A stretch of 64,000 nucleotides of DNA from an uncultured Alphaproteobacteria bacterium (lineage in GTDB: Bacteria; Pseudomonadota; Alphaproteobacteria; CAAHEQ01; UBA3637). Positions 5,186 through 27,333 of this stretch are shown here, in pieces; positions within the stretch are counted from its first letter, which is position 1; each line of letters starts with the position of its first letter. Both the position numbers and the translations under genes were made by a program. The notes below the pieces were generated by a model that had not been told where the DNA came from, did no database searches, and worked only from the letters and a program-made list of their open reading frames with translations. Location of the stretch: positions 132,325 to 196,324 of the forward strand of contig CALXVP010000001.1 of the NCBI GenBank assembly GCA_944392125.1, read 5' to 3'.

Positions 5186-7408
5186 TTAGGAGCCGAATTT
5201 ATTGCTTCTTGGGAAGCCAACCGGCGGGAATTTCCCGACTGTTGCCCGTTTGGCTAACCACAAATTAATGTTGCGTTCTACCCGCGTGCCGTTGCCACTC
5301 GGAAATGATAACCCGTCTTCCAAATTAAAGAACTTGGCATCCGATAACTTTGCTTCCTGATACCGCTGTAAGATTACACCGCTACCGCGAGTCATTGTCG
5401 GAATCTCATCGGCCGAAAACACCACCATTTTGCGATTCGTGCCGATAACGGCAACATGTGTTCCGTTGGCGGGTTTACAAAGCAATGCCTTATCCCCCTC
5501 AGCCAAATTCAAAATAATCTTGCCAGCTCGTGTTTGCGCAATTACATCGTTGCTGTTCACAATAAATCCTTTTCCGTTTCGCGATGCAACCAGCAATTTT
5601 TGATCGGGTTGCCAGGCAAACATCGTTACAATCTCAGCATCCTCAGCCACGTCAACCGATAATCTTAACGGCTCGCCATATCCGCGCCCGCCCGCAATAT
5701 TATTGCCCAAAATCGTGTAAAAACGACCGTTATCGGCAAATAATACAATGTTATCGGTTGTATACGTCTTTAAGGATAATTTAAGAGAATCGCCCTCTTT
5801 GAATTTAACATCGTCGGCCGAATCAATATGCCCTTTCATGGCGCGTATCCAGCCTTGTTTTGAAAGAACAACCGTTATCGGTTCTTTTTCAATCATCGCT
5901 TCTATGGAAATTTCTACTTCTTTCGGCGCTTCTGCTACAAGCGTCCGCCGTTTGCCGAGTTCCGTTTTCTGCCCGAATTTCTTTTGTATTTCTTTGATTT
6001 CTTCCGCTAATTTATTCTTGCGCAACTCCTCATCGGTCAGTAAGGCTTCCAAACCTTCTTTTTCAATCTCCAAATTCTTATATTCGGTTTTAATTTGTTC
6101 TTCTTCTAATTTTCTGAGTGAACGCAACCGCATGTTTAAAATGGCTTCCGCTTGAATATCCGAAAGGGAAAACTCTTTCATCATCACAACTTTCGGCTCA
6201 TCTTCGTTGCGAATAATTTCAATCACGCGATCCAAATTCAAATACGCAATTAAAAACCCTTGCAATAATTCCATTCTGTGCGCAATTTTATCGAGCCGAT
6301 ATTTTGATTTGCGGATTAAAACCGTATCACGATGTTTTAAAAAGGCAGTCAGCACCTCGCGTATATTCATAACGCGCGGTGTATGATCTGCATCCAACAC
6401 ATTCATATTTAAGTTGAAATTAACTTGTAAATCCGTGTTTTTAAACAGATGTTCCATTAACTGTTCCGGTTCAACCGAACGTGATTTCGGCTCCAACACC
6501 AACCGAACAACATCCGATGATTCATCGCGAATATCCGCCAACATCGGCAACTTCTTTTCCGATAATAACTTGGCAATGCGTGCCACCAAATCCGATTTTT
6601 GAACTTGATACGGAATTTCCGTTACAACAATCTGATATTGCCCATGCGAAAGATCTTCTTTTTCCCATTTTGCACGCACTTTCATTGCCCCGCGCCCCTC
6701 CGTATACGTTTTAACGATACTTTCGTGACTTTCGGCCAAAATACCGCCTGTCGGGAAATCGGGGCCTTGAATAAACGTCATCAACCGTTCAATTTCCGCG
6801 TCCGGTTTTTTCAATAAATACAAAAGCGCATCACATACTTCACCCACGTTATGCGGTGGAATGTTTGTTGCCATACCGACGGCAATTCCCGACGCCCCGT
6901 TTGCCAGCAAATTCGGAAAAGCGGCCGGCATAACCATCGGCTCTTCCTCCTCGCCGTCATACGTCTTTTCAAAATCAACGGCATCATCATCCAGCCCGTC
7001 CATCAACGCAACGGCAACAGCCGTTAACCGCGCTTCCGTATAACGCATGGCTGCGGCTTTATCGCCGTCTATATTTCCGAAGTTACCCTGCCCGTCTACC
7101 AACGGATACCGCACGGCAAAATCTTGTGCCAAACGCACCATTGCTTCATATACCGACGAATCCCCGTGCGGGTGATACTTACCGATAACATCACCCACCA
7201 CACGGGCGCATTTCTTAAAGCCCGAAACCGGGTCCAGCTTTAATTGCCTCATGGCAAATAAAAGCCGGCGATGCACGGGTTTTAAACCGTCTCGCACATC
7301 CGGCAACGATCGTGCCACAATCGTGGAAACGGCATACGCCAAATATCTCTCGGAGAGGGCATTTGCCAGTTTTGTTTCTCTAATATTTTCCGTTATGACT
7401 TCATTCAT
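5186..7408 (-). CDS. parC: DNA topoisomerase IV subunit A (ParC; GyrA-family, 740 aa, lacking the long GyrA C-terminal extension)
   Basis: The N-terminus [30 protein letters not shown] and the active-site region [10 protein letters not shown] are typical of GyrA/ParC. The 740-aa length favours ParC. Confidence 0.8.
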
Positions 7409-16602: not shown

Positions 16603-16829
16603 ACTAAAACCAAAGTGAATTTATTTTTTAACAATCCTCGTTTAACGCGGGGATTGTTTTTTTTCACTATAACACCTCTTTATGCGATAAATCAAAATAA
16701 TAAAAATAAAATCACGATTCGTCTTTTTTCAAAAAAAGCCCTCAATATGGCTTTGATTTGCGAAAATATAGTTGACGAAGCATGGAAATTTTTATAAAAT
16801 ACTGTAAATTGTTTTTATAAATAAAATGC

Positions 16830-18500
16830 ATGAATATACAGATACACAAAATTACGGGAGACGGAATGAAAAAAACGATTTCTTTTTTTAAACAAATAGG
16901 TTGTCTAGAGCAAGAGAGTATACAAAGCAAAATGCCTCATCACTCGGCTTTGTCCACTGATTTTCCTGCGATACACACCGAGAAAGCCGAATCGGGGCGA
17001 TCCATGGTGGAAATACTGGCGGTGTTGGCGATTATGGGCGTGTTGGCCGTTGTGGGGATTGTGGTTTATAAATACGCCATGGATAAACACCGCGCCAATA
17101 CGATTTTACAAGATGCACATCTCGGCTTTGCCTCTATCAGAGGCACACGTGCCGAACAATTTGATTGGACGCCCGTTAATTTTGAGCCTAAAAGCGGAAA
17201 GCCCGTTGATGTTTTGCGCGATTCCGATAGAGATGACTATGTGCGCGTGCAAGAAATTGAACTTTCGGTTTGCAAACAAATTTTATTGATGGCCGTTCCG
17301 GGGAAATTGATGTTTTACGATGAACAAGGCGAAGATATGCTTACCTGCCCCGATGAATTAAACACGATTATCTTTGCGTTTGAGGGCACACGGGCGCCGG
17401 GCGTCAACTGCGAAACGGGCACCGACTGCGAGGGCGAAGGCGAAGGCGCATATTGCAATATGGATAAAGGAGTTTGTCGCACCTGCCCTGTGGAAGAAGG
17501 ATTTGTTGTCAGCCCGAACGGAGAGGCTTGTTGGCCTGTTTGCGATGAAGATACCGAAACAACCTGTATGACGGACACCGAACGTTGGTGTTGCAATAAC
17601 GAAACCGAGCTTTGCGGAGATGAAGCAGGCGTGTGCGAACTTTCAAGCGGTGTTTGCGAATATCGGTTAAAATCTCAAACAAGCGAAAAAGAGGCTGATT
17701 GCAGTTATCGGTATGAAAACCAAACCAGTAAAAAATATTCTGAGTGTGAATGCAAATTTACAAACCAAACTAGTGAAAAATATGCTGATTGCAGTTACGA
17801 AAGTTCTGGCACAGCCGAAAATTTCAAACTGAACCTCATAAAAGGGTGTCCCAGTGGACAATATTGTTATTTGGCATACTCGGACGACAGTTGTGAAAAT
17901 TCACTGGGTAGCGCAGGTGCTTCAATCATGCATGGCACATGCACGGCTTGGGCAATGACAAATCCGTCGTGCCGTATCCGTTCATTGGGGGATGTGTTGT
18001 CTTCGTGTACAACATGTCCAAACGGGCAATATTGCTATCTAGCATACAAGGATGATCAGTGTGAGCAAACTCTTGGCAGTGAGGGTGCAGCCACTATGTA
18101 CGGAACATGTACGGCTTGGGCAATGACAAATCCAACTTGTCGTATTAAAGAATTGAGCGGGGTTGTTACACCAATTCAAACGTGTCCAAACGGGCAATAT
18201 TGCTATTTGGCTTATCAAGATGAAGGTTGCGAATCCTCACTGGGCAGTACCGGAGCGGAGATCATGTACGGTGCTTGCACGGCTTGGGCAATGACAAATC
18301 CAACTTGCCCAATTAAATGGTTGGATACTGATATACTGACGCCCGTGGAAAAATGCCCAAGTAGTAAGTACTGCTACTTAAAATATGCGTCACCCGGTTG
18401 TGTGGATCCTGTAGGTTCAACCGGTTCAGACCCAATTTATGGTGTTTGTATTCCAGGAAACTCCAATAATGCAAACTGTCCTAGTGAGAGTTCAGAATAA
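16830..18500 (+). CDS. cysteine-rich tandem-repeat protein with a type IV pilin-like N-terminus (…ESG|RSMVEILAVLAIMGVLAVVGIVVYKYAM); paralogue of 1979-4861; the real start is probably internal (for example M35 at about 16932)
   Basis: Same class III signal-peptide motif as the 960-aa protein. Four C-terminal roughly 55-aa repeats (CPNGQYCYLAY...GTCTAWAMTNPTCRI). The stop overlaps the avd start (TAATG). Confidence 0.55.
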   Translation: MNIQIHKITGDGMKKTISFFKQIGCLEQESIQSKMPHHSALSTDFPAIHTEKAESGRSMVEILAVLAIMGVLAVVGIVVYKYAMDKHRANTILQDAHLGFASIRGTRAEQFDWTPVNFEPKSGKPVDVLRDSDRDDYVRVQEIELSVCKQILLMAVPGKLMFYDEQGEDMLTCPDELNTIIFAFEGTRAPGVNCETGTDCEGEGEGAYCNMDKGVCRTCPVEEGFVVSPNGEACWPVCDEDTETTCMTDTERWCCNNETELCGDEAGVCELSSGVCEYRLKSQTSEKEADCSYRYENQTSKKYSECECKFTNQTSEKYADCSYESSGTAENFKLNLIKGCPSGQYCYLAYSDDSCENSLGSAGASIMHGTCTAWAMTNPSCRIRSLGDVLSSCTTCPNGQYCYLAYKDDQCEQTLGSEGAATMYGTCTAWAMTNPTCRIKELSGVVTPIQTCPNGQYCYLAYQDEGCESSLGSTGAEIMYGACTAWAMTNPTCPIKWLDTDILTPVEKCPSSKYCYLKYASPGCVDPVGSTGSDPIYGVCIPGNSNNANCPSESSE

Positions 18501-18868
18501 TGTCTTCTCGGAGTGAACTTTTACCGATATACATAGCCTGTTACCGTTTAACGCAGGAAATTTTTTCGTGTACGATAAAATTTCCAAAAGAGTATAAATT
18601 TCTCTTAGGACAGTCATTAAATGAAAACGCCTTAAATTTATGCTGTTTAATTTCTCGCATAAACCAAATGACACAAAAGGGAACGTATTTTGAGGACTTT
18701 TTTGCGACATTTGAACGTGTGCGGATAGAATTACGTTTGAGTGCAGATTTTAATTTACTGAGCTTAAAAAAACAAGCGCATCTGGCAGTTATGCTTGAAG
18801 ATATCCATACTCAAGCGCTTGCTTGGAGGAGAAGCAACTTAAAAAAGGAGGAAAAAACGATTACATAA
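18500..18868 (+). CDS. avd: DGR accessory variability determinant (Avd-like four-helix-bundle protein)
   Basis: 122 aa. LPIYIACYRLTQEIFSCTIKFPKEYKFLLGQSL matches the Avd / four-helix-bundle family pattern. Position is immediately upstream of the TR and RT. Confidence 0.75.
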   Translation: MSSRSELLPIYIACYRLTQEIFSCTIKFPKEYKFLLGQSLNENALNLCCLISRINQMTQKGTYFEDFFATFERVRIELRLSADFNLLSLKKQAHLAVMLEDIHTQALAWRRSNLKKEEKTIT

Positions 18869-19030
18869 TCGGCCGGAGTCAGGGAAAATTCCGAATTATC
18901 CTGAGTGAGCTATATTTTAATTTTAAAAGGGTCAGTCACCAAATGATGTTTAGTAGAATTAAACGATATTTGGTATATATAATAGTATTGACTTATTCAC
19001 GGAAGATTTTTATCTTCTATAACGCCTTAG

Positions 19031-19118
19031 GCGTTAATCTTTCTTCCGGAGATGTGAACAACAACAACCGTAACAACACTAACTACGCAGTTTGTCAGTA
19101 GGTTAGGCGCCGCTTTTA
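19031..19118 (+). repeat. DGR template repeat (TR, 19031-19101) plus a conserved 3' IMH-like extension gttaggcgccgctttta (19102-19118)
   Basis: Near-identical to the 3' end of the minus-strand gene 20461-20871. Every mismatch maps to an adenine in this copy. It is A-rich (AAC)n, and its translation (…NNNNRNNTNYAVCQ) appears as the spurious ORF 18823-19101. Confidence 0.85.
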
Positions 19119-19141
19119 AAATTAAAATTTAATAAATTGAT

Positions 19142-20440
19142 ATGGAACAGATTGATTTTTTTAACTTATTATCTGATTTAACACTTGAAGATGTATTTCA
19201 AGCGTATTTTGAGTGTCGCCGAAACAAAAGGCGCACGCTATCGTCTTTAAATTTTGAAATGAACTACGAACAAAATTTAATTCAACTATGGAAAGACATA
19301 ACGCAAAGGCGCTATCAACTAGCTGATTCTAATGCTTTTATTGTAAAATATCCTGTCCCACGAGAAGTATTTGCAGCACAATTTAGAGATAGAATTGTTC
19401 ATCATCTCGTAATTGGACGGTTATTACCGCATTTTGAAAAAGCTTTTTCAGATTATTCATATAGTTGCCGCGCTGGGAAAGGAACATTGTATGGCATTCG
19501 TGACATAGAAGAAATGCTCAAAATTTGCTCTAAAAATTACACAAAAAATTGTTTTGTTTTACGTTTAGACATTGAGGGTTTTTTCTTCCATATCGACAAA
19601 CGAATATTGCATAAACAAATTATATCACTTGTTAATAATTCCTATTTTAAATCAAATAAATCCACAATACTCTATCTTATTGACTTAATTTTAAACGATA
19701 AACCAACAATTCACTGCAAAAAAAAGACGCCGCAAAACAGTTGGAAAAATTTACCAAGAACAAAAAGCCTATTTTATGCAGATAGGGATTGTGGCTTGCC
19801 TATCGGAAATTTAACAAGCCAAATTTTTGCAAATTTTTATTTAAACGGGTTAGACCATTACATCACACAACTGAATCCGGAATTGTTCTATGGCCGGTAC
19901 GTGGATGACATGGTACTTATTCATTCCGACAAAGAATACCTGTGCCACGTAAAAAACTTAATTCAAACTTATCTTCATAATAACTTAAACCTTAATTTAC
20001 ACCCTAAAAAAATAGTCTTACAACACTACGGAAAAGGCTTTTTATTCATTGGAGCATACATTCTTCCAAATCGAACATATCCGTCCAAAAGGCTACAAAA
20101 ATCTTTTTATAGGCGAATTTCATATCTGAATAACCTGTGGAAAAATAAAAATATGAATACAGTTGAAAAAGAATTGGTAAATAAAACATTATGTATCTTA
20201 AATTCCTATTTTGGGCTACTTAGGAACTTCAATTCTTGGCGTATTAAACTGAAAGGTTGGAATATGCTTTCTCCCGAAATAAGAGAGGTTTTTTTTAGTG
20301 ACTTAAATTTTTCAAAAGTCAAAATTTGCGATAAAATGAAAGAAAGGTTTAGAGTTGAGGCACGTAACATTCTGCAGCCCCCGCTAATGGGGCTGCAAAA
20401 TAAAACCGCCTTTTTAAAAAGGCGGTTTAAGAAAAAATAA
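19142..20440 (+). CDS. diversity-generating retroelement reverse transcriptase
   Basis: RT motifs, including YVDDMVLI (YxDD) and the DGR-diagnostic LPIGNLTSQIFANFYL (SQ replaces the group II intron QGxxxSP). 432 aa with no maturase or endonuclease domains. Adjacent TR/VR pair. Confidence 0.9.
   Translation: MEQIDFFNLLSDLTLEDVFQAYFECRRNKRRTLSSLNFEMNYEQNLIQLWKDITQRRYQLADSNAFIVKYPVPREVFAAQFRDRIVHHLVIGRLLPHFEKAFSDYSYSCRAGKGTLYGIRDIEEMLKICSKNYTKNCFVLRLDIEGFFFHIDKRILHKQIISLVNNSYFKSNKSTILYLIDLILNDKPTIHCKKKTPQNSWKNLPRTKSLFYADRDCGLPIGNLTSQIFANFYLNGLDHYITQLNPELFYGRYVDDMVLIHSDKEYLCHVKNLIQTYLHNNLNLNLHPKKIVLQHYGKGFLFIGAYILPNRTYPSKRLQKSFYRRISYLNNLWKNKNMNTVEKELVNKTLCILNSYFGLLRNFNSWRIKLKGWNMLSPEIREVFFSDLNFSKVKICDKMKERFRVEARNILQPPLMGLQNKTAFLKRRFKKK
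20382..20436. promoter_or_regulatory. two strong hairpins inside the 3' end of the RT coding region (tgcagcccc-N7-ggggctgca at 20382-20406; aaaccgccttttt/aaaaaggcggttt palindrome at 20410-20436), immediately 3' of the VR/IMH on the target strand
   Basis: Seen directly. Their position relative to the IMH resembles the hairpin/cruciform element that enhances DGR homing. They could also terminate the convergent transcripts. Confidence 0.4.
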
Positions 20441-20443
20441 AAT

Positions 20444-20534
20444 TAAAAGCGGCGCCTAACCTACTGACAAACTGCGTAGTAAGTGGTGTAACGGCCGACG
20501 TCGTTGACCACATCTCCGGAAGAAAGATTAACGC
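20444..20534 (-). repeat. DGR variable repeat (VR, 20461-20534) plus IMH (20444-20460, gttaggcgccgctttta)
   Basis: Reverse complement aligns to TR 19031-19118. Differences are only at TR adenines (aac to gtc/gac/ggc/tac/acc), plus one extra codon relative to the TR. Confidence 0.85.
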
Positions 20535-20871
20535 GGTACGCATTTGTAGTACCAGACCCTAAGCTAGACCAAACCCACTTGTCCGGTCCCATACTGACTA
20601 CATTTGGGCAACTACCGGAAGCAGATCCTCCCAACCAGCGTTCCTCTTCACTAATGTAACAAATATCGTCCATTGAAGCCAATTCCATTCCTTGTGATTC
20701 ACACCATGTGAACGCACTCCACCAGTTCACACTAACATCACTCACACAAAAGGTTTTGCCGTTTTTACCAGTAAACATTTCGCCATCATTGCAAGTGCCT
20801 GCCCATACGGATTGAGATACCAATACGGTATAAAGTGTTAATCCAAGTAACCAAATATAATTTTTTCTCAT
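20461..20871 (-). CDS. DGR target protein: small secreted C-type-lectin-fold (CLec) protein with the VR at its C-terminus (…GDVVNDVGRYTTYYAVCQ)
   Basis: Signal peptide (LLGLTLYTVLVSQSVWA). CTLD-like motifs (WCESQGMELAS, WLGG, WVWS). The VR encodes the last roughly 24 aa, and the stop codon is followed directly by the IMH. Confidence 0.8.
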   Translation of the reverse strand: MRKNYIWLLGLTLYTVLVSQSVWAGTCNDGEMFTGKNGKTFCVSDVSVNWWSAFTWCESQGMELASMDDICYISEEERWLGGSASGSCPNVVSMGPDKWVWSSLGSGTTNAYRVNLSSGDVVNDVGRYTTYYAVCQ

Positions 20872-21089
20872 TTCATCTCCTTTTCTTCTTTGTCGTTATA
20901 ATAGTTCTGGTTCATTTTACCCGATTTTCCCGTTTTTTTGCAAGTATTATTTCTGTTTTTCTAAAAATTTATGCTTGCACTGCTCATTCGCGCACCGCTC
21001 TTAAAAAAGTGACAGTGTTTCTCTATATATAACACCTGCAAACATAACGTCGGCTTAACGTTTGTTTGTCTTCTTGATTATCCCAAAAT

Positions 21090-21419
21090 CTACGCGTTCC
21101 GTTTCCAAACACGCAATTTGTTCTTTTCTTCTTTGTTACGCAAGGCTGTTTCTAAATCAATCCCGTGCATATTCGCAAGCGAACATACGTATATCAACAC
21201 GTCCGCCAACTCGTCTGCCACATTTCCCGCAACGGAACCCGTGCCGATTGAGCCACCTTTGGCATTTTTACGGACAGCGCTAATCAACTCTCCGCATTCT
21301 TCCGCTAATAAACAACATTCATAAAAACAATCGGTTGTATTAAATCCGCGCGCTTTTTTCATTTGCAATACATACGATTGTATTTCAGCCAACGTAGGTT
21401 TTTCGGGTAAATCAATCAT
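21090..21419 (-). CDS. MazG-like nucleotide pyrophosphohydrolase domain protein
   Basis: 109 aa. EECGELISAV...ELADVLIYV is the MazG/NTP-PPase EExxE...D/E pattern. Confidence 0.6.
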   Translation of the reverse strand: MIDLPEKPTLAEIQSYVLQMKKARGFNTTDCFYECCLLAEECGELISAVRKNAKGGSIGTGSVAGNVADELADVLIYVCSLANMHGIDLETALRNKEEKNKLRVWKRNA

Positions 21420-21552
21420 TTAAGCCTCCTTCTATTTTCCACATAAACATTTTATACGATTCATCTTTTAATTTTCAAGTAATTCATCAAAAAAAACTGG
21501 ATTTTTACACATAAGTGTGTTATCTTCACTTATACACATATTAAAGGAGGCG

Positions 21553-22701
21553 ATGATGGACAACAATAATCCTATTTTCTTACCTGATTACGATAACAGT
21601 ATTCTTTCCGTATCGGCATCACTGGCTTCTTATTATCAAATTCCGACCGATTACAAAACAAATCCGCTGATTGATTCTGCGCTTCAAAAAGGATATAAAA
21701 ATGTTATCTTATTCGTTGTGGACGGATTAGGCAAAAGTATTCTGTTTAACCATATACCCGAGACGGCTTTTTTGCGCCAAAAATACCGCAAAACAATTTC
21801 CTCCGTTTTTCCGCCCACAACCGCTGCCGCTACCCGAACGCTACAAACTGCTTTACCGCCGATTGTTCACGGCTGGCTCGGTTGGTCTTGTTATTTTAAA
21901 GAGTATCAGCGAACCATTACGCTTTTTACCGATACCGACTATTATACGGATTTGCCCGTTCCCGATTTCCCCGGTTCGCGTAAACTTATTCCTTTTACCT
22001 TCTTTTGGCAGAAAATTAATCCCGCACTCAATATTCAAACGCATACCCTTTTCCCCGATAAGATTGACCATAAGGGCATTGTGAATTTACACAAGATGAA
22101 TAGAAGAATAAAAGAAATTACGCAATCGGACGGAAAACATTTTATTTACGCTTATTGGGCCGAACCGGATCATACATCTCACGCGTATGGTCCCGATAGT
22201 CCGGAAGTGGCTAATCGGGTACGCTTAATCAATCGCCGTTTGCGTCAACTCCATGCCGATTTGAAAGATACCCTCTTAATCATTACGGCTGACCATGGGC
22301 AAATTTCCGTTTCGGAAACATTACTCATTAACCAATACCCCGAACTTTTGGATTGTTTGGCGTGTCCGCTCAGTTTGGAGGGGCGAGCCGTATCAGTATT
22401 CGTAAAACCGGATAAAAAAGATGTATTTGAACGCGAATTTGCTAAACATTTAGCGCAAGATTTTATTCTTGTTCCGCGCGAGGAGGTTATTAAGAATGCC
22501 TTGTTCGGAAAAGGAACTCCGCATCCAAAAGCGCATGATTTTATCGGCGATTATCTCCTTATTGCCATTACGGATAAAATTTTGGAGCAAACTTACCCCG
22601 AGGACAAACGCAATTTAATTCTCCGCGGCTCCCATGCCGGCATAACGAAAAAAGAAATGGAAGTGCCGTTGATTATTGCGCCCTCAAAAGATAAATCTTA
22701 A
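21553..22701 (+). CDS. alkaline-phosphatase-superfamily protein (type I phosphodiesterase / nucleotide pyrophosphatase-like)
   Basis: VILFVVDGLGKS, FPPTTAAATRTLQTALPPIVHG and AEPDHTSHAYGPDS match AP-superfamily metal-ligand motifs. An RBS (aggagg) precedes the ATG at 21553. Confidence 0.6.
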   Translation: MMDNNNPIFLPDYDNSILSVSASLASYYQIPTDYKTNPLIDSALQKGYKNVILFVVDGLGKSILFNHIPETAFLRQKYRKTISSVFPPTTAAATRTLQTALPPIVHGWLGWSCYFKEYQRTITLFTDTDYYTDLPVPDFPGSRKLIPFTFFWQKINPALNIQTHTLFPDKIDHKGIVNLHKMNRRIKEITQSDGKHFIYAYWAEPDHTSHAYGPDSPEVANRVRLINRRLRQLHADLKDTLLIITADHGQISVSETLLINQYPELLDCLACPLSLEGRAVSVFVKPDKKDVFEREFAKHLAQDFILVPREEVIKNALFGKGTPHPKAHDFIGDYLLIAITDKILEQTYPEDKRNLILRGSHAGITKKEMEVPLIIAPSKDKS

Positions 22702-22865
22702 TTTTAGGATTACTTGTTGCAACGCTTAATATACAATACAAGCGTTGTGATACTTCTTCATTGAGGTGATTTGCGTTATCTTTAAAAGCGTTATATCCAT
22801 TTCAATAACGGCGTTGCTTGCACTTATTCCAATAACGCATTGCCTCTCTGCGTTTATCTTCCGAA

Positions 22866-24098
22866 TTAAAAAGCGCTTTCTTTTTGGGAGGTTTGTTCGG
22901 TCGGCAATTTTAAAAGTTTATATAGCGGCACAATACTGAATGCAAAGGCAATCATATACACAATAAAAGATTGTTCAAGCGTAATCCCATCCAACACAAA
23001 CTTGAACATAATTAACATCACACCCGCCATAAAACGCGAAACCAGATTTTTAACCGATGATGCCGTTGAACGCGTTTCGGAAGAAACAAGTGTATGCAAC
23101 AGTGCCGTTGAACCCAGCGTAAACGTGAGTTGCATACCGATGGCAACGCAAATAAACGTCAGCAATATCATTCCCACAATCGGATTAGCCACCTTAATCA
23201 CAACAACGGATGCCATAAATGAAAGAATAAATAAAATATACGTTAACTTCCCGATTGTTTTTAAAGAAAGCCACTTCACGGTTTGTTGTAAAAAGAGCGC
23301 TGCTCCCGCTCGGCAAAAGTGATTGATAAAGTAAATAACACCGAATAATGTAACCGGAATCATGGATATTTGCATGAGCGGTTGAAAACTCCATACAAAT
23401 ACCATGGTAGTTGCAGCGATAATGCCCGAATACATGATATAATGGCAAAGCTGCGGATTGGAAAGCGTATCTTTCGTAATAGTATATAATTCATGATACT
23501 TTGCACGCAACCCTTTTGTTTTGTGATGAAAAGCCGGCACACTCGGCAATAAAAACAATAATAACGTTGCTCCCGTGTTTAAAACAATTTCAATTAAAAT
23601 CAAAACAGGAAATCCATACGCTTTATATAAAAACGGCCCGACAAGCGATGCCATTGCCGTTCCGAGCGACATCCAAAAATTTAACTTTCCGTATCCCGAA
23701 AGCATTTTTTTTGTTTTCCCTTTGGATTTTAAATAGTCGTATATATATCCGTCCGACACGCCCGAATAAAAGGCTTTTGACATGGAAAATAAAATTTCTC
23801 CCGCCAATACAATCCAATATCCTCGGAAGAAATACCATAAAATCAACCGCATTAAGAATAATAAATATGAAAAAATCAAAACGTTCCGACGCGGAAATAT
23901 ATCACCGATATACCCTGCCGGAATTTCAAACAACAACGCAGTTATGGAAAATATCCCTTGAAATAAAAATAAGTCCCCCGCCGTTAAACCATTCTCTTCA
24001 TAAAAGAGCAACATCACGGGCAACATTAAAATTTGCGTTTGTAAAAAGGTTGATATATTAAAAATTCTTAAAGGTTTCCGTAAAGTCATGCCGTCCAT
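22866..24098 (-). CDS. MFS-family transporter
   Basis: 12 predicted TM segments. The GDIFPRR-like motif between TM2 and TM3. Confidence 0.7.
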   Translation of the reverse strand: MDGMTLRKPLRIFNISTFLQTQILMLPVMLLFYEENGLTAGDLFLFQGIFSITALLFEIPAGYIGDIFPRRNVLIFSYLLFLMRLILWYFFRGYWIVLAGEILFSMSKAFYSGVSDGYIYDYLKSKGKTKKMLSGYGKLNFWMSLGTAMASLVGPFLYKAYGFPVLILIEIVLNTGATLLLFLLPSVPAFHHKTKGLRAKYHELYTITKDTLSNPQLCHYIMYSGIIAATTMVFVWSFQPLMQISMIPVTLFGVIYFINHFCRAGAALFLQQTVKWLSLKTIGKLTYILFILSFMASVVVIKVANPIVGMILLTFICVAIGMQLTFTLGSTALLHTLVSSETRSTASSVKNLVSRFMAGVMLIMFKFVLDGITLEQSFIVYMIAFAFSIVPLYKLLKLPTEQTSQKESAF

Positions 24099-24180
24099 CC
24101 CCCATACTTTATAACGACAAGTTTTTTAAATCCTGCTTTCTTTTCATCTGAAACATCTTTCAAAATCGTCTGCCAAAATA

Positions 24181-24879
24181 CTAATAATCTTCGTTTGAAA
24201 TTAAAGCGTTCTTATTCTTTTTAACTACTTTACGCGGGCGCCCTTTTAACTCCGGAACCAATTTTGTAATAATTTCTTGCACCTCGTTTAAATGCTTTGA
24301 ATACACATGATCCGCATTCGGAATCACCTTATATTCCACACGCAAATATCTATGATTAGATAATTGCTCCGCCAGCATGGAAACCGATGACTCCGAAACA
24401 ATCGTATCTTTTCCGCCTTGAATAATCAACCCTGAGGCCGGGCACGGTGTTAAGAAGTCAAACGAATAGGCATCTGCCGGCGGTGAAACAAAAACAAATC
24501 CCTTGATTTCCGGCCGACGCATTAAGAGTTGCGCCGCAATCCAAGCACCAAACGAATATCCCGCAATCCAGCAGACACTCGATTCGGAATCAATGTTTTG
24601 CAACCAGTCCAATGCAATAATCGCGTCCGCCAATTCGCCGACGCCTGTTCCGTCAATCTCTCCTTGCGAATTTCCGACTCCTCTGAAATTGAATCGCAAA
24701 ACGGAAAATCCCATATTAACAAAGGCTTGAAACATGGCATAAGTAACGCGATTATTCATTGTTCCACCCTGAGCCGGATGCGGATGCAATATCAAAACAA
24801 GCGGTGCTCTCGGATTTTCCGATTTATGAAAACGGCCTTCCAATCGCCCTGCTCCCCCGTTAAAAAATACTTCTGCCAT
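24181..24879 (-). CDS. alpha/beta-hydrolase-fold protein
   Basis: A GYSFGAW nucleophile elbow (GxSxG), followed by Asp and His at positions consistent with a catalytic triad. Confidence 0.65.
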   Translation of the reverse strand: MAEVFFNGGAGRLEGRFHKSENPRAPLVLILHPHPAQGGTMNNRVTYAMFQAFVNMGFSVLRFNFRGVGNSQGEIDGTGVGELADAIIALDWLQNIDSESSVCWIAGYSFGAWIAAQLLMRRPEIKGFVFVSPPADAYSFDFLTPCPASGLIIQGGKDTIVSESSVSMLAEQLSNHRYLRVEYKVIPNADHVYSKHLNEVQEIITKLVPELKGRPRKVVKKNKNALISNEDY

Positions 24880-25004
24880 CGTTTTTTCCCTTTCAAATCA
24901 ATAAATCAGTCAATATAAGAGCGATTTTAAAATATTTTTTTTAAAAATGCAATCTTTTTTGTTGACATTCCTTTTTTTTACGTGTATATATCTTTATATC
25001 CGAT

Positions 25005-25080
25005 GGCGGAATAGCTCAGATGGTAGAGCGGTGGAATCATAATCCATGTGTCGGGGGTTCGATCCCCTCTTCCGCTACCA
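25005..25080 (+). tRNA. tRNA with CAT anticodon (Met elongator, or Ile2 if lysidine-modified)
   Basis: Cloverleaf: D-arm tagctcagatggtagagc, anticodon loop atCATaa, T-loop gggggttcgatcccc, CCA encoded. Confidence 0.75.
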
Positions 25081-25085
25081 CTTTT

Positions 25086-25114
25086 AAAGCCACAGTTTCT
25101 GTGGCTTTTGTTTT
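25086..25114 (+). terminator. rho-independent terminator after the tRNA (aaagccacag-tttc-tgtggcttt + TGTTTT)
   Basis: A perfect 10-bp stem with a 4-nt loop and a T-run. Confidence 0.6.
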
Positions 25115-25150
25115 AGATTTACAGTGTGTAATACGCTCGGGGGGAACGCT

Positions 25151-25534
25151 ATGAGAACGCTGCACAAATCCATTCGTCATTTACGGAACGCCATCCGGTT
25201 TTCTTGCGACGGTTTTCACGCTGTTTTCCGTTCCGAAATTGCGTTTCGACTGGATCTGCTTATTGCACTTTGCATTTTATTGATAACAATTTTTTTGCCG
25301 ATTTCTCTGCTTGAAAAAGGGTGGATTATTTCTTCACTTATTTTTATTTTGTTTGCGGAACTTGCCAATACGGCAATTGAAACCATTATAGATCGCATTT
25401 CAACCGCTTATCATGAATTATCCAAAAAAGCAAAAGATATCGGCTCCACACTCGTTTGTTTATCTTTTATCAATTTATTTATTGTGCTGGGTTGCGTTTT
25501 CTTCTCTCATATCGGCGCATTTGCGCTTCATTGA
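25151..25534 (+). CDS. dgkA: diacylglycerol kinase (prokaryotic DgkA family)
   Basis: Three TM helices. ELANTAIETIIDRIS...KKAKDIGSTLV matches the DgkA signature. Confidence 0.75.
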   Translation: MRTLHKSIRHLRNAIRFSCDGFHAVFRSEIAFRLDLLIALCILLITIFLPISLLEKGWIISSLIFILFAELANTAIETIIDRISTAYHELSKKAKDIGSTLVCLSFINLFIVLGCVFFSHIGAFALH

Positions 25535-26010
25535 TTTGGAACGGCCTTAATATCTGCAAATCGTGCCTGAATACACTTGGATAACGTAATCGGATTTATC
25601 CCGATTGAAACGCCGATTTTGCCCGCACTTAAAAATATCTTATCAAACCGTTCGGCGCTTTCATCAATGTAAACGGGAAAAGGCTTTTTTAACCCGATAG
25701 GAGAACACCCGCCGTGCATATAGCCCGTTATCGGCAATAATTGTTTCATCGGCAACATTTCCAAACTTTTTTCACCGCAAACGCGCGCCCCTTTCTTTAA
25801 ATCCAAATCATACCCGGCCGGCACCACAAATACGTAATACTTTTTGGAATGCCCAACCGTTACCAATGTTTTGAAAACCGTTTCAGGCAATTTACCGATT
25901 TTTTCGGCTACTTCATACACATCTAACAATCCATCGGGATTATCGTAAGTTAATACTTCATACGCGCATCCTTGCGTATCTAAAAAGCGCATGGCATTTG
26001 TTTTATTCAT
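25528..26010 (-). CDS. ybaK: Cys-tRNA(Pro)/Cys-tRNA(Cys) deacylase YbaK
   Basis: 160 aa. YbaK/ProX deacylase-domain pattern (…HGGCSPIGL…). Confidence 0.75.
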   Translation of the reverse strand: MNKTNAMRFLDTQGCAYEVLTYDNPDGLLDVYEVAEKIGKLPETVFKTLVTVGHSKKYYVFVVPAGYDLDLKKGARVCGEKSLEMLPMKQLLPITGYMHGGCSPIGLKKPFPVYIDESAERFDKIFLSAGKIGVSIGINPITLSKCIQARFADIKAVPNQ

Positions 26011-26681
26011 CGTCTCACCAAATTTGGCGCAACTTTAAAATCAGCTTCGGTTGTCGCCCGAATTGTTTCTAAATCGGAGTATGGACTGATTTCAACAAGC
26101 GTGAGCCCGTTTTCATCACACGTAAAAACACCTTTTTCCGTAATAATCATATCAACTTCATGTGAGGCCGTCAACGGCAATGTGCACCGTTTTAAAATTT
26201 TTGGTTCGCCGTGATTGGTATGCTCCATGGCAACAATCACTTTTTGCGCCCCGACAACCAAATCCATTGCACCGCCCATACCCGGCACCAGTTTCCCCGG
26301 CACCAGCCAATTTGCCAGATTTCCCTCTTCATCTACTTGTAAACCACCCAAAACGGTTGCGTTAATATGTCCGCCCCGAATCATGGCAAAAGAAAGAAAA
26401 CTATCAAAATAAGCGCCTCCTTCTTTAATGGTGACTAATTGCCCGCCCGCATTCGTTATACGCGCATCAGCCGTCAACTCATCAGGCATTTTGCCAACGC
26501 CTAAAATTCCGTTTTCCGACTGTAATGTAATATGTTTATCCGGGCTGATATAATTGGCGGCAAGCGTCGGCAACCCGATGCCCAGCGTTACCACGTCTCC
26601 GTCATGAAATTCCTCGGCAACCCGTCGGGCAATAATTTGTTTTATTTCATTTTTATCCAACATGTTGTCCCGCCTTATCAA
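26007..26681 (-). CDS. 3-oxoacid / acetate CoA-transferase subunit B
   Basis: Family I CoA-transferase beta subunit (ENGILGVG…, conserved Glu region). Paired with the A subunit upstream. Confidence 0.8.
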   Translation of the reverse strand: MIRRDNMLDKNEIKQIIARRVAEEFHDGDVVTLGIGLPTLAANYISPDKHITLQSENGILGVGKMPDELTADARITNAGGQLVTIKEGGAYFDSFLSFAMIRGGHINATVLGGLQVDEEGNLANWLVPGKLVPGMGGAMDLVVGAQKVIVAMEHTNHGEPKILKRCTLPLTASHEVDMIITEKGVFTCDENGLTLVEISPYSDLETIRATTEADFKVAPNLVRR

Positions 26682-27333
26682 TAATATAATCCACCAATAA
26701 CCCCGGTATCACAACTTCATTCGGATTCAATGCCGTTTCCACATACTCATCGGCTTCCACAATCACCGTTTTGGCAGCCGTTGCCATAACGGTATTAAAA
26801 TTACGCGTTGTGCCGTAAAAAGCGATATTGCCGAACGAATCAACCTTTGAGCCGTAAATCAACGCAACATCGGCCGTCAATGGTCTTTCCAACAGATATT
26901 CCTTACCGTCAACAACCATTTTTTGCTTACCGTCTTCCACAACCGTGCCGATACCGGTCGGCGTTAAAATACCGCCCAGCCCCGCACCGCCCGCGCGAAT
27001 ACGCTCCGCCAACGTGCCCTGTGGCACTAATTCAACCTCTAATGTGCCCTCGTGCATTTGTCGGCCCGTTTCGGGATTCATACCGATATGCGTCACAATG
27101 GCCTTTTTGACACACCGATTGGCAATCAGCAACCCCTTATCCGAATCAATAAAAGAAGTATCATTTGCAATCAAGGTTAAATTTTTGCGCTCCAAGAGAT
27201 GCGGTATTACGCAAACAGGTGAACCACACTTTAAAAAACCGCCAATCATCAAAGACATACCGTCATGAATCAATGTGGCCGCCGCTTCCGGCGTTGTCAA
27301 TTTAGATTTTTTCGTCATAGTATGTTCATACAA
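26653..27333 (-). CDS. 3-oxoacid / acetate CoA-transferase subunit A
   Basis: Family I CoA-transferase alpha subunit (MSLMIGGFLKCGSP; GMNPETG). Confidence 0.8.
   Translation of the reverse strand: MYEHTMTKKSKLTTPEAAATLIHDGMSLMIGGFLKCGSPVCVIPHLLERKNLTLIANDTSFIDSDKGLLIANRCVKKAIVTHIGMNPETGRQMHEGTLEVELVPQGTLAERIRAGGAGLGGILTPTGIGTVVEDGKQKMVVDGKEYLLERPLTADVALIYGSKVDSFGNIAFYGTTRNFNTVMATAAKTVIVEADEYVETALNPNEVVIPGLLVDYIIDKAGQHVG

Follow-up and report, generated by a model that had tools for sequence, protein, structure and literature searches.

Diversity-generating retroelements (DGRs) are known from phages as well as from cellular genomes. The cellular DGRs of Treponema denticola (TvpA) and Legionella (LdtA) are chromosomal, and each has a secreted or surface target protein of the C-type-lectin fold with the variable repeat (VR) at its C-terminus. 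Here we describe a locus in 64,000 nucleotides of an uncultured Alphaproteobacteria bacterium (contig CALXVP010000001.1, positions 132,325 to 196,324; this whole stretch is called the window), in which the VR is one codon longer than the template repeat (TR). Judging from its sequence, the locus is a complete chromosomal DGR, ordinary in kind, in an uncultured, gut-type, low-GC alphaproteobacterium.

In 2018, Wu et al. (NAR; PMC5758913) reported insertions or deletions (indels) between TR and VR in 25 of 372 DGRs, about 7%. Among these, 14 had indels in multiples of 3, 74% of the indels adjoined AAC, and template slippage by the reverse transcriptase (RT) was proposed as the cause (Figure 4C of that paper), a proposal that is restated in PMC12875486. 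The indel in the window is of the same kind, with 3 nt added in a tract of five NNC codons templated by (AAC)4, and the TR/VR pair is gapped in 10 of the 49 related DGR loci in which we could detect a pair. Length mismatches of this kind are on record as a non-canonical outcome of DGRs and are no new phenomenon, and the original prediction, made by a model from the letters of the window alone, overstated the case in calling the present one unusual. What is new here is evidence, at the level of strains, that the change is on the VR side and is notably frequent. The 2018 survey, with one TR/VR pair per genome, could only suggest an origin on the VR side (retrohoming), whereas several strains with an invariant TR and with VRs of 30, 32 and 33 nt separate gain by the VR from loss by the TR, and near-clonal strains attribute AAC-repeat mismatches to the VR and not to decay of the TR. 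From these comparisons, the explanation that we regard as on balance the likeliest is that the TR with four AAC units is stable and that the VR gained its codon by slippage of the RT on (AAC)4, the slippage being the inferred part.

The repeat pair and its length difference

The TR was located at 19031-19119 of the forward strand (89 nt), both by direct reading and by local alignment against the reverse-complemented VR, and the VR at 20443-20534 of the reverse strand (92 nt), where it comprises the last 24 codons of the target gene, the stop codon and 18 nt beyond. The opposite orientation of the two repeats is a point absent from the original prediction. Both copies start with the same 26 nt (GCGTTAATCTTTCTTCCGGAGATGTG) and end with the same 33 nt (GCAGTTTGTCAGTAGGTTAGGCGCCGCTTTTAA), and they part ways only past ...CTTTTAA. 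This 3' constant segment lies at 19087-19119 (forward strand) in the TR, where it resembles an IMH* (IMH, initiation of mutagenic homing), and at 20443-20475 (reverse strand) in the VR, where the IMH-like copy spans the stop codon of the target. Between the identical segments, the TR has a core of 30 nt (19057-19086; AAC AAC AAC AAC CGT AAC AAC ACT AAC TAC), and the VR has a core of 33 nt (20476-20508; GTC AAC GAC GTC GGC CGT TAC ACC ACT TAC TAC). Exact alignment of the repeats confirms in this way the predicted difference of one codon. The site of the additional 3 nt is the tract GTC AAC GAC GTC GGC (20494-20508, reverse strand), five NNC codons that face, and have as their template, the (AAC)4 tract of the TR (19057-19068, forward strand); the gap has no unique placement within these five codons.

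All five in-frame placements of the gap give 8-10 substitutions between the two repeats of the window, none of them at a position other than A, as had been predicted. The figure of nine or more substitutions that accompanied this prediction was slightly high, because the minimum is eight (4 A>G, 3 A>T and 1 A>C); it holds if the inserted GGC is counted as two A changes. Since the TR contains 26 A in 89 nt, 17 of them inside the 30-nt variable core, the chance that eight of eight substitutions fall on A is about (26/89)^8, or 5e-5, by arithmetic from the A counts. In the codons of the target gene, the variable A occupy the first and second positions, which is one of the features by which a DGR is recognized.

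It should be mentioned that a gapless search with the TR pattern, with adenines masked and up to 3 mismatches allowed, returned the TR alone and did not find the VR, and that a general repeat search of the window did not detect the pair. Both searches missed it because of the indel, and DGR finders that need gapless TR/VR matches would miss such pairs in the same way. A search with the 3' constant segment returned just one TR and one VR and no second VR in the window, so that the window has no second target. A small hairpin (TAACGCC-TTA-GGCGTTA; 19020-19036, forward strand) straddles the 5' boundary of the TR, and it has a weaker counterpart at the VR copy (20530-20544).

A constant TR and variable VRs among strains

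Contigs of the same species were gathered from ENA, Logan and NCBI sources by exact look-up of the RT, of Avd (the accessory variability determinant) and of a neighboring MazG-like protein. The nearest public genome is the NCBI metagenome-assembled genome (MAG) CALXWZ010000001.1, registered as "uncultured Alphaproteobacteria bacterium BRZ_CI__bin89" (L013). In JGI metagenome contigs, an exact VR-specific 25-mer and the shared 3' segment found nothing, nor did a scan of IMG/VR.

Thirteen loci of the species, from four lineages, include the TR, and its sequence, with four AAC units, does not vary among them. The VR is of several lengths: seven alleles of the species have a core of 30 nt, three of 33 nt and one of 32 nt. 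The original prediction had proposed looking in related strains for a polymorphic VR length, which was found, and for TR alleles with five AAC units, none of which appeared. The seven 30-nt alleles, read at the nucleotide or protein level, encode YNFGRYFTYY, YYYGRYFTYY, YSYGRYFTYY, SSYGRYFTYY, NTYGRYFTYY, LNYGRGSTAY and ANSGRNGTYS. The 33-nt alleles are that of the window, the L008 type (TAC AAC AAC CGC CGC CGT...) and the L093/L105 type (GAC GAC ATC TTC TAC CGT...), and 15 of the 15 tract codons in these three are NNC, as is expected of templating by AAC.

Compared with the TR, in which 26 of the 89 positions are A, nine VR alleles have 76 substitutions at A and 4 elsewhere. The spectrum of A>G, A>T and A>C over these alleles is 33:35:8, so that G and T are favored over C. 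The mutagenic-homing signature claimed in the original prediction is borne out by these counts, and all the testable defining parts of a DGR are present at the locus. The four differences at other positions are T19080>A (L004/L005), T19080>G (L010), G19056>C (L001/L009) and T19053>G (L093). Two of the four strike T19080, the T of ACT, which lies between A-rich codons; the other sites are the last G of GTG (19056) and the T of GAT (19053).

Across about 4.8 kb (16738-21538), five contigs (L001, L002, L004, L005 and L009) differ from the window in the VR and nowhere else, and these five carry three different 30-nt VRs. At the nucleotide level, the contigs of this clonal clade have four VR alleles, and two further protein variants, P0013 and P0014, share the target sequence of the clade. 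The other three lineages (L007/L013, L008/L011/L012 and L010) differ from the window by about 1-2%, and all have the TR with four AAC units. In other words, different VR alleles stand on otherwise identical sequence beside a constant TR, and diversification of the VR is ongoing.

The VR cores of the clonal clade (window, L001, L002, L004, P0013 and P0014) have a common 3' half, GGC CGT TAC xxx ACT TAC TAC, and differ mostly in their first three or four codons. The GGC (Gly) before CGT is present in six of the nine alleles, across lineages. This pattern could reflect strong selection, or a partial re-diversification of the 5' part, and the position of Gly-Arg between the last two strands of the structural model suggests a hairpin turn. 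The single 32-nt VR (L013, 5302-5392) has a 2-nt duplication of CT (GCT CT AAC against ACT AAC of the TR); the resulting frameshift removes the terminal Cys and extends the open reading frame (ORF) of the target to 147 aa. Either the allele is real and defective, or the assembly is wrong at this point. Two Logan contigs, L099 and L100, end inside the constant segment that is common to TR and VR (...GGTTAGGCGCC), and therefore the repeat breaks short-read assemblies at this locus.

A sister lineage (L105 and L093) is 91.5% identical to window positions 20376-26865 and has no avd-TR-RT. In their place, L105 has a paralogous 138-aa lectin-like gene (6001-6620). The VR, the constant 3' segment and the two hairpins that lie downstream of the VR in the window have all been retained in this lineage, in which four protein variants share one 33-nt VR. 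On sequence grounds, this VR looks like a frozen fossil left after loss of the retroelement.

Origin of the additional codon

The simpler reading of these comparisons is that the VR gained one codon and the TR lost none, because the TR has four AAC units in every strain while the VR has 30, 32 or 33 nt, and because, over the about 4.8 kb compared, strains with 30-nt VRs match the window everywhere except in the VR. The original prediction had left the two alternatives side by side; gain by the VR is now borne out by the strain comparison, and loss of an AAC from the TR is disfavored. The nearest other DGR is that of L014, one of three MAGs of related uncultured Alphaproteobacteria of other species (L014, L015 and L016), whose RTs are 46-56% identical to the RT of the window and whose TRs have the same layout as here, [4 N-codons]-Arg-[AAC run]-TAC-GC.-.T.-TGT-...-TAG. 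The four-unit TR is old, because (AAC)4-CGT recurs in the TR of L014 ((AAC)4 CGT AAC AAC ACA AAC TAC) at an RT identity of 56%. By the same simpler reading, five-codon VRs would have arisen from a four-unit TR on two or more occasions in this species. The possibility that a longer loop was imported by recombination from a paralogue of the P0003 type was also considered; since the NNC pattern is preserved in each of the five tract codons, it was rejected.

By analogy with the known DGR pathway, a complex of RT and Avd would reverse-transcribe the TR RNA, misincorporating opposite adenines, and the mutagenized cDNA would replace the VR at the 3' end of the gene for a small, secreted, C-type-lectin-like protein. 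During copying of (AAC)4, two of every three incorporations can be mismatched, and the register would be anchored only by the G opposite C. The nascent cDNA may then slip back by one 3-nt unit, so that one AAC would be copied twice and mutagenized like the others, giving five NNC codons. Slippage at retrohoming is preferred over slippage at DNA replication, because the perfect (AAC)4 of the TR, the better substrate for replication slippage, never varies. It is also preferred because all three in-frame length changes of the species sit in the AAC-templated tract, because L015, L034, L081 and L091 have similar in-frame VR insertions at AAC or CAA runs, and because Wu et al. proposed slippage from their 372 DGRs. 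L015 (443-544 and 1182-1280) repeats the arrangement of the window, with five VR codons facing (AAC)4 in the TR. With L062 included, five of the related loci have in-frame length differences at such runs; longer VRs in this small set (five loci, with the species of L013 counted) outnumber shorter ones (one locus, L062, by 9 nt). A further round of homing would restore the VR to its normal length; the present lack of register between TR and VR would therefore be a transient, recurrent state and not damage to the system.

Several observations weigh against slippage at retrohoming. Indels are reported to be negligible when the BPP-1 system is reconstituted in E. coli (bioRxiv 10.64898/2026.07.21.739853). 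Within the species, only insertions are seen (3 of the 10 in-frame VR alleles are longer than the TR, 0 of the 10 shorter, with no VR of 27 nt), which simple slippage does not predict, and the lack of shorter VRs may reflect selection. A perfect tandem duplication of 3 nt, such as a duplication of DNA after homing would leave, is present in the tract of every 33-nt allele (ACGACG, CGCCGC and GACGAC), and the frozen 33-nt VR of the sister lineage, which has no RT, makes an older five-unit TR possible for that lineage. From this last point it might be argued that the VR of the window is a relic, and that its TR once had five AAC units, one of which was lost by slippage after the last homing event of the window strain. 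Perfect trinucleotide repeats do contract readily, and the predominance of longer VRs in related DGRs is the pattern that recurrent contraction of TRs would also give. Yet we consider a relic improbable: with four AAC units in the TR of all four lineages and of L014, the contraction would have to predate the species, and homing would have passed over the VR of the window along an entire deep branch but struck those of its clonal siblings time and again; moreover, among the strains examined, no TR retains a fifth unit. The tandem duplications are the basis of another proposal, in which homing installed a 30-nt VR and replication slippage or repair then duplicated 3 nt without any part of the RT. 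Removal of one copy leaves a valid four-codon NNC tract in all three alleles, and the unit of the L008 allele lies within a run, CGCCGCCG, that could slip. In simulation, however, a random five-codon NNC tract contains a 3-nt tandem duplication with a probability of 0.51-0.57, so that three of three is not significant and the test does not discriminate. Before duplication, the unit would have stood just once in the window and L093 alleles, which gives slippage little to act on, whereas the far more slip-prone (AAC)4 of the TR is invariant in the 13 loci; the three in-frame variants are all in the AAC-templated tract, and the lengths of target proteins within their cluster vary only through the VR. 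A duplication after homing is accordingly unlikely, although it merits more attention than the other alternatives.

Slippage might also have occurred one step earlier, when RNA polymerase transcribed (AAC)4, giving a TR RNA with five units that the RT then copied faithfully in length. The end product, five independently mutagenized NNC codons, would be the same as that of RT slippage. Transcriptional slippage is known mainly for homopolymer runs, and four trinucleotide units are a poor substrate for it. The mismatch-rich primer terminus of a DGR RT is a more direct cause (PMC5758913; PMC12875486), and the chance that RNA polymerase was responsible seems to us slim. Finally, hypervariable repeated sites invite errors of assembly or sequencing: some of our contigs have only 2.6-3x coverage, L099 and L100 break inside the repeat, and the frameshifted VR of L013 could itself be such an error. 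The 33-nt VR of the window, however, recurs in a Logan assembly (L099) of run ERR4096347, which is also the source of L006, so that the 3-nt difference is reproducible and very probably not the reading error that the original prediction allowed for. The target protein of the window (P0008) is recorded by NCBI, Logan and ENA, the L008-type 33-nt VR is on 12 contigs and was read from four different samples, and the added codon disturbs neither the frame nor the NNC pattern, all of which makes an artefact highly improbable.

If slippage by the RT is accepted as the source of the additional codon, one may speculate further that this RT lineage frequently adds whole AAC-templated codons with a directional bias and so diversifies the length of the loop as well as its residues. 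We put this forward only as a tentative, rather doubtful idea. If it is true, both loop length and residue identity are diversified at the tip of a lectin-like beta-hairpin, much like the junctional length diversity of the third complementarity-determining region (CDR3) of antibodies. The bias toward insertion could be a property of the enzyme instead of a result of selection.

The retroelement, its target and known systems

The order of the locus is avd, TR and RT, then the convergent target gene with the VR at its C-terminal end, and then two hairpins. The avd gene (18500-18868, forward strand) encodes 122 aa and matches Pfam bAvd (PF22296, E 1e-9) and NCBIfam DivGenRetAVD (NF033474, E 5e-12). 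Both scores are under the curated cut-offs, and the gene is in a conserved position beside the RT; the exact Avd protein is at the same position in the 22 contigs read. The RT gene (19142-20440, forward strand) encodes a DGR-type enzyme of 432 aa, with a match to Pfam RVT_1 (E 5e-16) and the motifs LPIGNLTSQIFAN and YVDD. Its best solved relative is 8ub7_A (E 8e-28), a chain of 328 aa named "Reverse transcriptase" in which the IGxLTSQ motif is aligned, and which we take to be the DGR RT of Bordetella phage BPP-1. Group II intron RTs reached only about 1e-6 in the same search, far below this match. Between avd and the TR is a promoter-like site, TTGACT-17-TATCTT (18988-19016, forward strand), from a consensus scan; it is a candidate only, the number of such sites being no higher than in shuffled sequence.

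The two hairpins with GC stems lie 3' of the VR on the reverse strand (20403-20428 and 20374-20396), 15 and 47 nt downstream of it and before the end of the RT gene. As DNA they fold with -23 kcal/mol (z -4.7), and one is terminator-like; they are candidates for the stem-loop of DGR target recognition and for a bidirectional terminator. The IMH and IMH* of a typical DGR may be represented here by the 33-nt, GC-containing constant segment, which has no mismatch between TR and VR, the copies differing only beyond it; some DGRs do have identical IMH and IMH* (PMC5758913). An Rfam scan of the window found tRNAs only. We regard the locus as a DGR because of the Avd matches, the RT motifs together with the match to 8ub7_A, the C-terminal VR in the coding sequence of a lectin-like target, the shared 3' segment followed by hairpins, and the 76 of 80 substitutions that fall on A, to which the ongoing diversification can be added. 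The flanking genes are housekeeping genes, encoding FabI, a MazG-like protein, a phosphodiesterase and a transporter of the MFS type. A phage origin was rejected, because these housekeeping flanks are syntenic in strains without the DGR.

The target gene (20461-20871, reverse strand) encodes a secreted protein of 136 aa, with an N-terminus like a signal peptide and six conserved Cys, and the VR corresponds to residues about 113-136. The structural model suggests a compact C-type-lectin-like fold that appears closer to the compact animal C-type lectin-like and Link domains. Pfam and NCBIfam searches gave no family for it, and no match to FGE-sulfatase or DUF1566. In the related strain L094 (2540-7231), two lectin-like and pilin-like gene modules stand in tandem without a DGR, and the orthologous protein of 135 aa has a C-terminus that is not of the VR type (..SSGRVIDDTPHALRAYALCW) and no IMH-like segment; therefore the target family exists without diversification. 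Directly 5' of avd is an ORF of 556 aa (16830-18500, forward strand), the stop of which overlaps the avd start. Its N-terminus is prepilin-like (...GRSMVEILAVLAIMGVLAVVG...), with a match to Pfam N_methyl of just E 0.29, and it contains cysteine-rich repeats of 56 aa (168 nt), the length being 537-556 aa among strains. No family was found for this ORF in Pfam or NCBIfam. A gene of this type also adjoins lectin-like genes in loci without a DGR (L094 and L105), and its product may work together with the diversified protein.

The locus adds to the described DGRs one cellular example, from an uncultured low-GC alphaproteobacterium known through metagenomes, with an unusually small lectin-like target. 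It is similar to the BPP-1 system (avd-TR-brt, with mtd as the target) in having Avd, a TR beside the RT and the motifs IGxLTSQ and YxDD. As in BPP-1, the substitutions are specific to A, with G and T favored over C (bioRxiv 10.64898/2026.07.21.739853), the VR is at the C-terminus of a target with a C-type-lectin fold, and the two repeats have a 3' constant segment in common; the stem-loop that follows the VR in BPP-1 has candidate counterparts in the hairpins described above. Unlike the phage-borne BPP-1 element, the present DGR is chromosomal, with its target 3' of the RT and on the opposite strand. Its repeats are short (89-92 nt), the 33-nt segments after the core are identical and the copies can be told apart only further downstream, and the target is a stand-alone secreted domain of 136 aa. 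In its chromosomal location, its C-terminal VR and its small target of C-type-lectin fold, the locus is similar to the TvpA and LdtA systems. A point of difference is that the target described here falls into no Pfam family, FGE-sulfatase and DUF1566 included.

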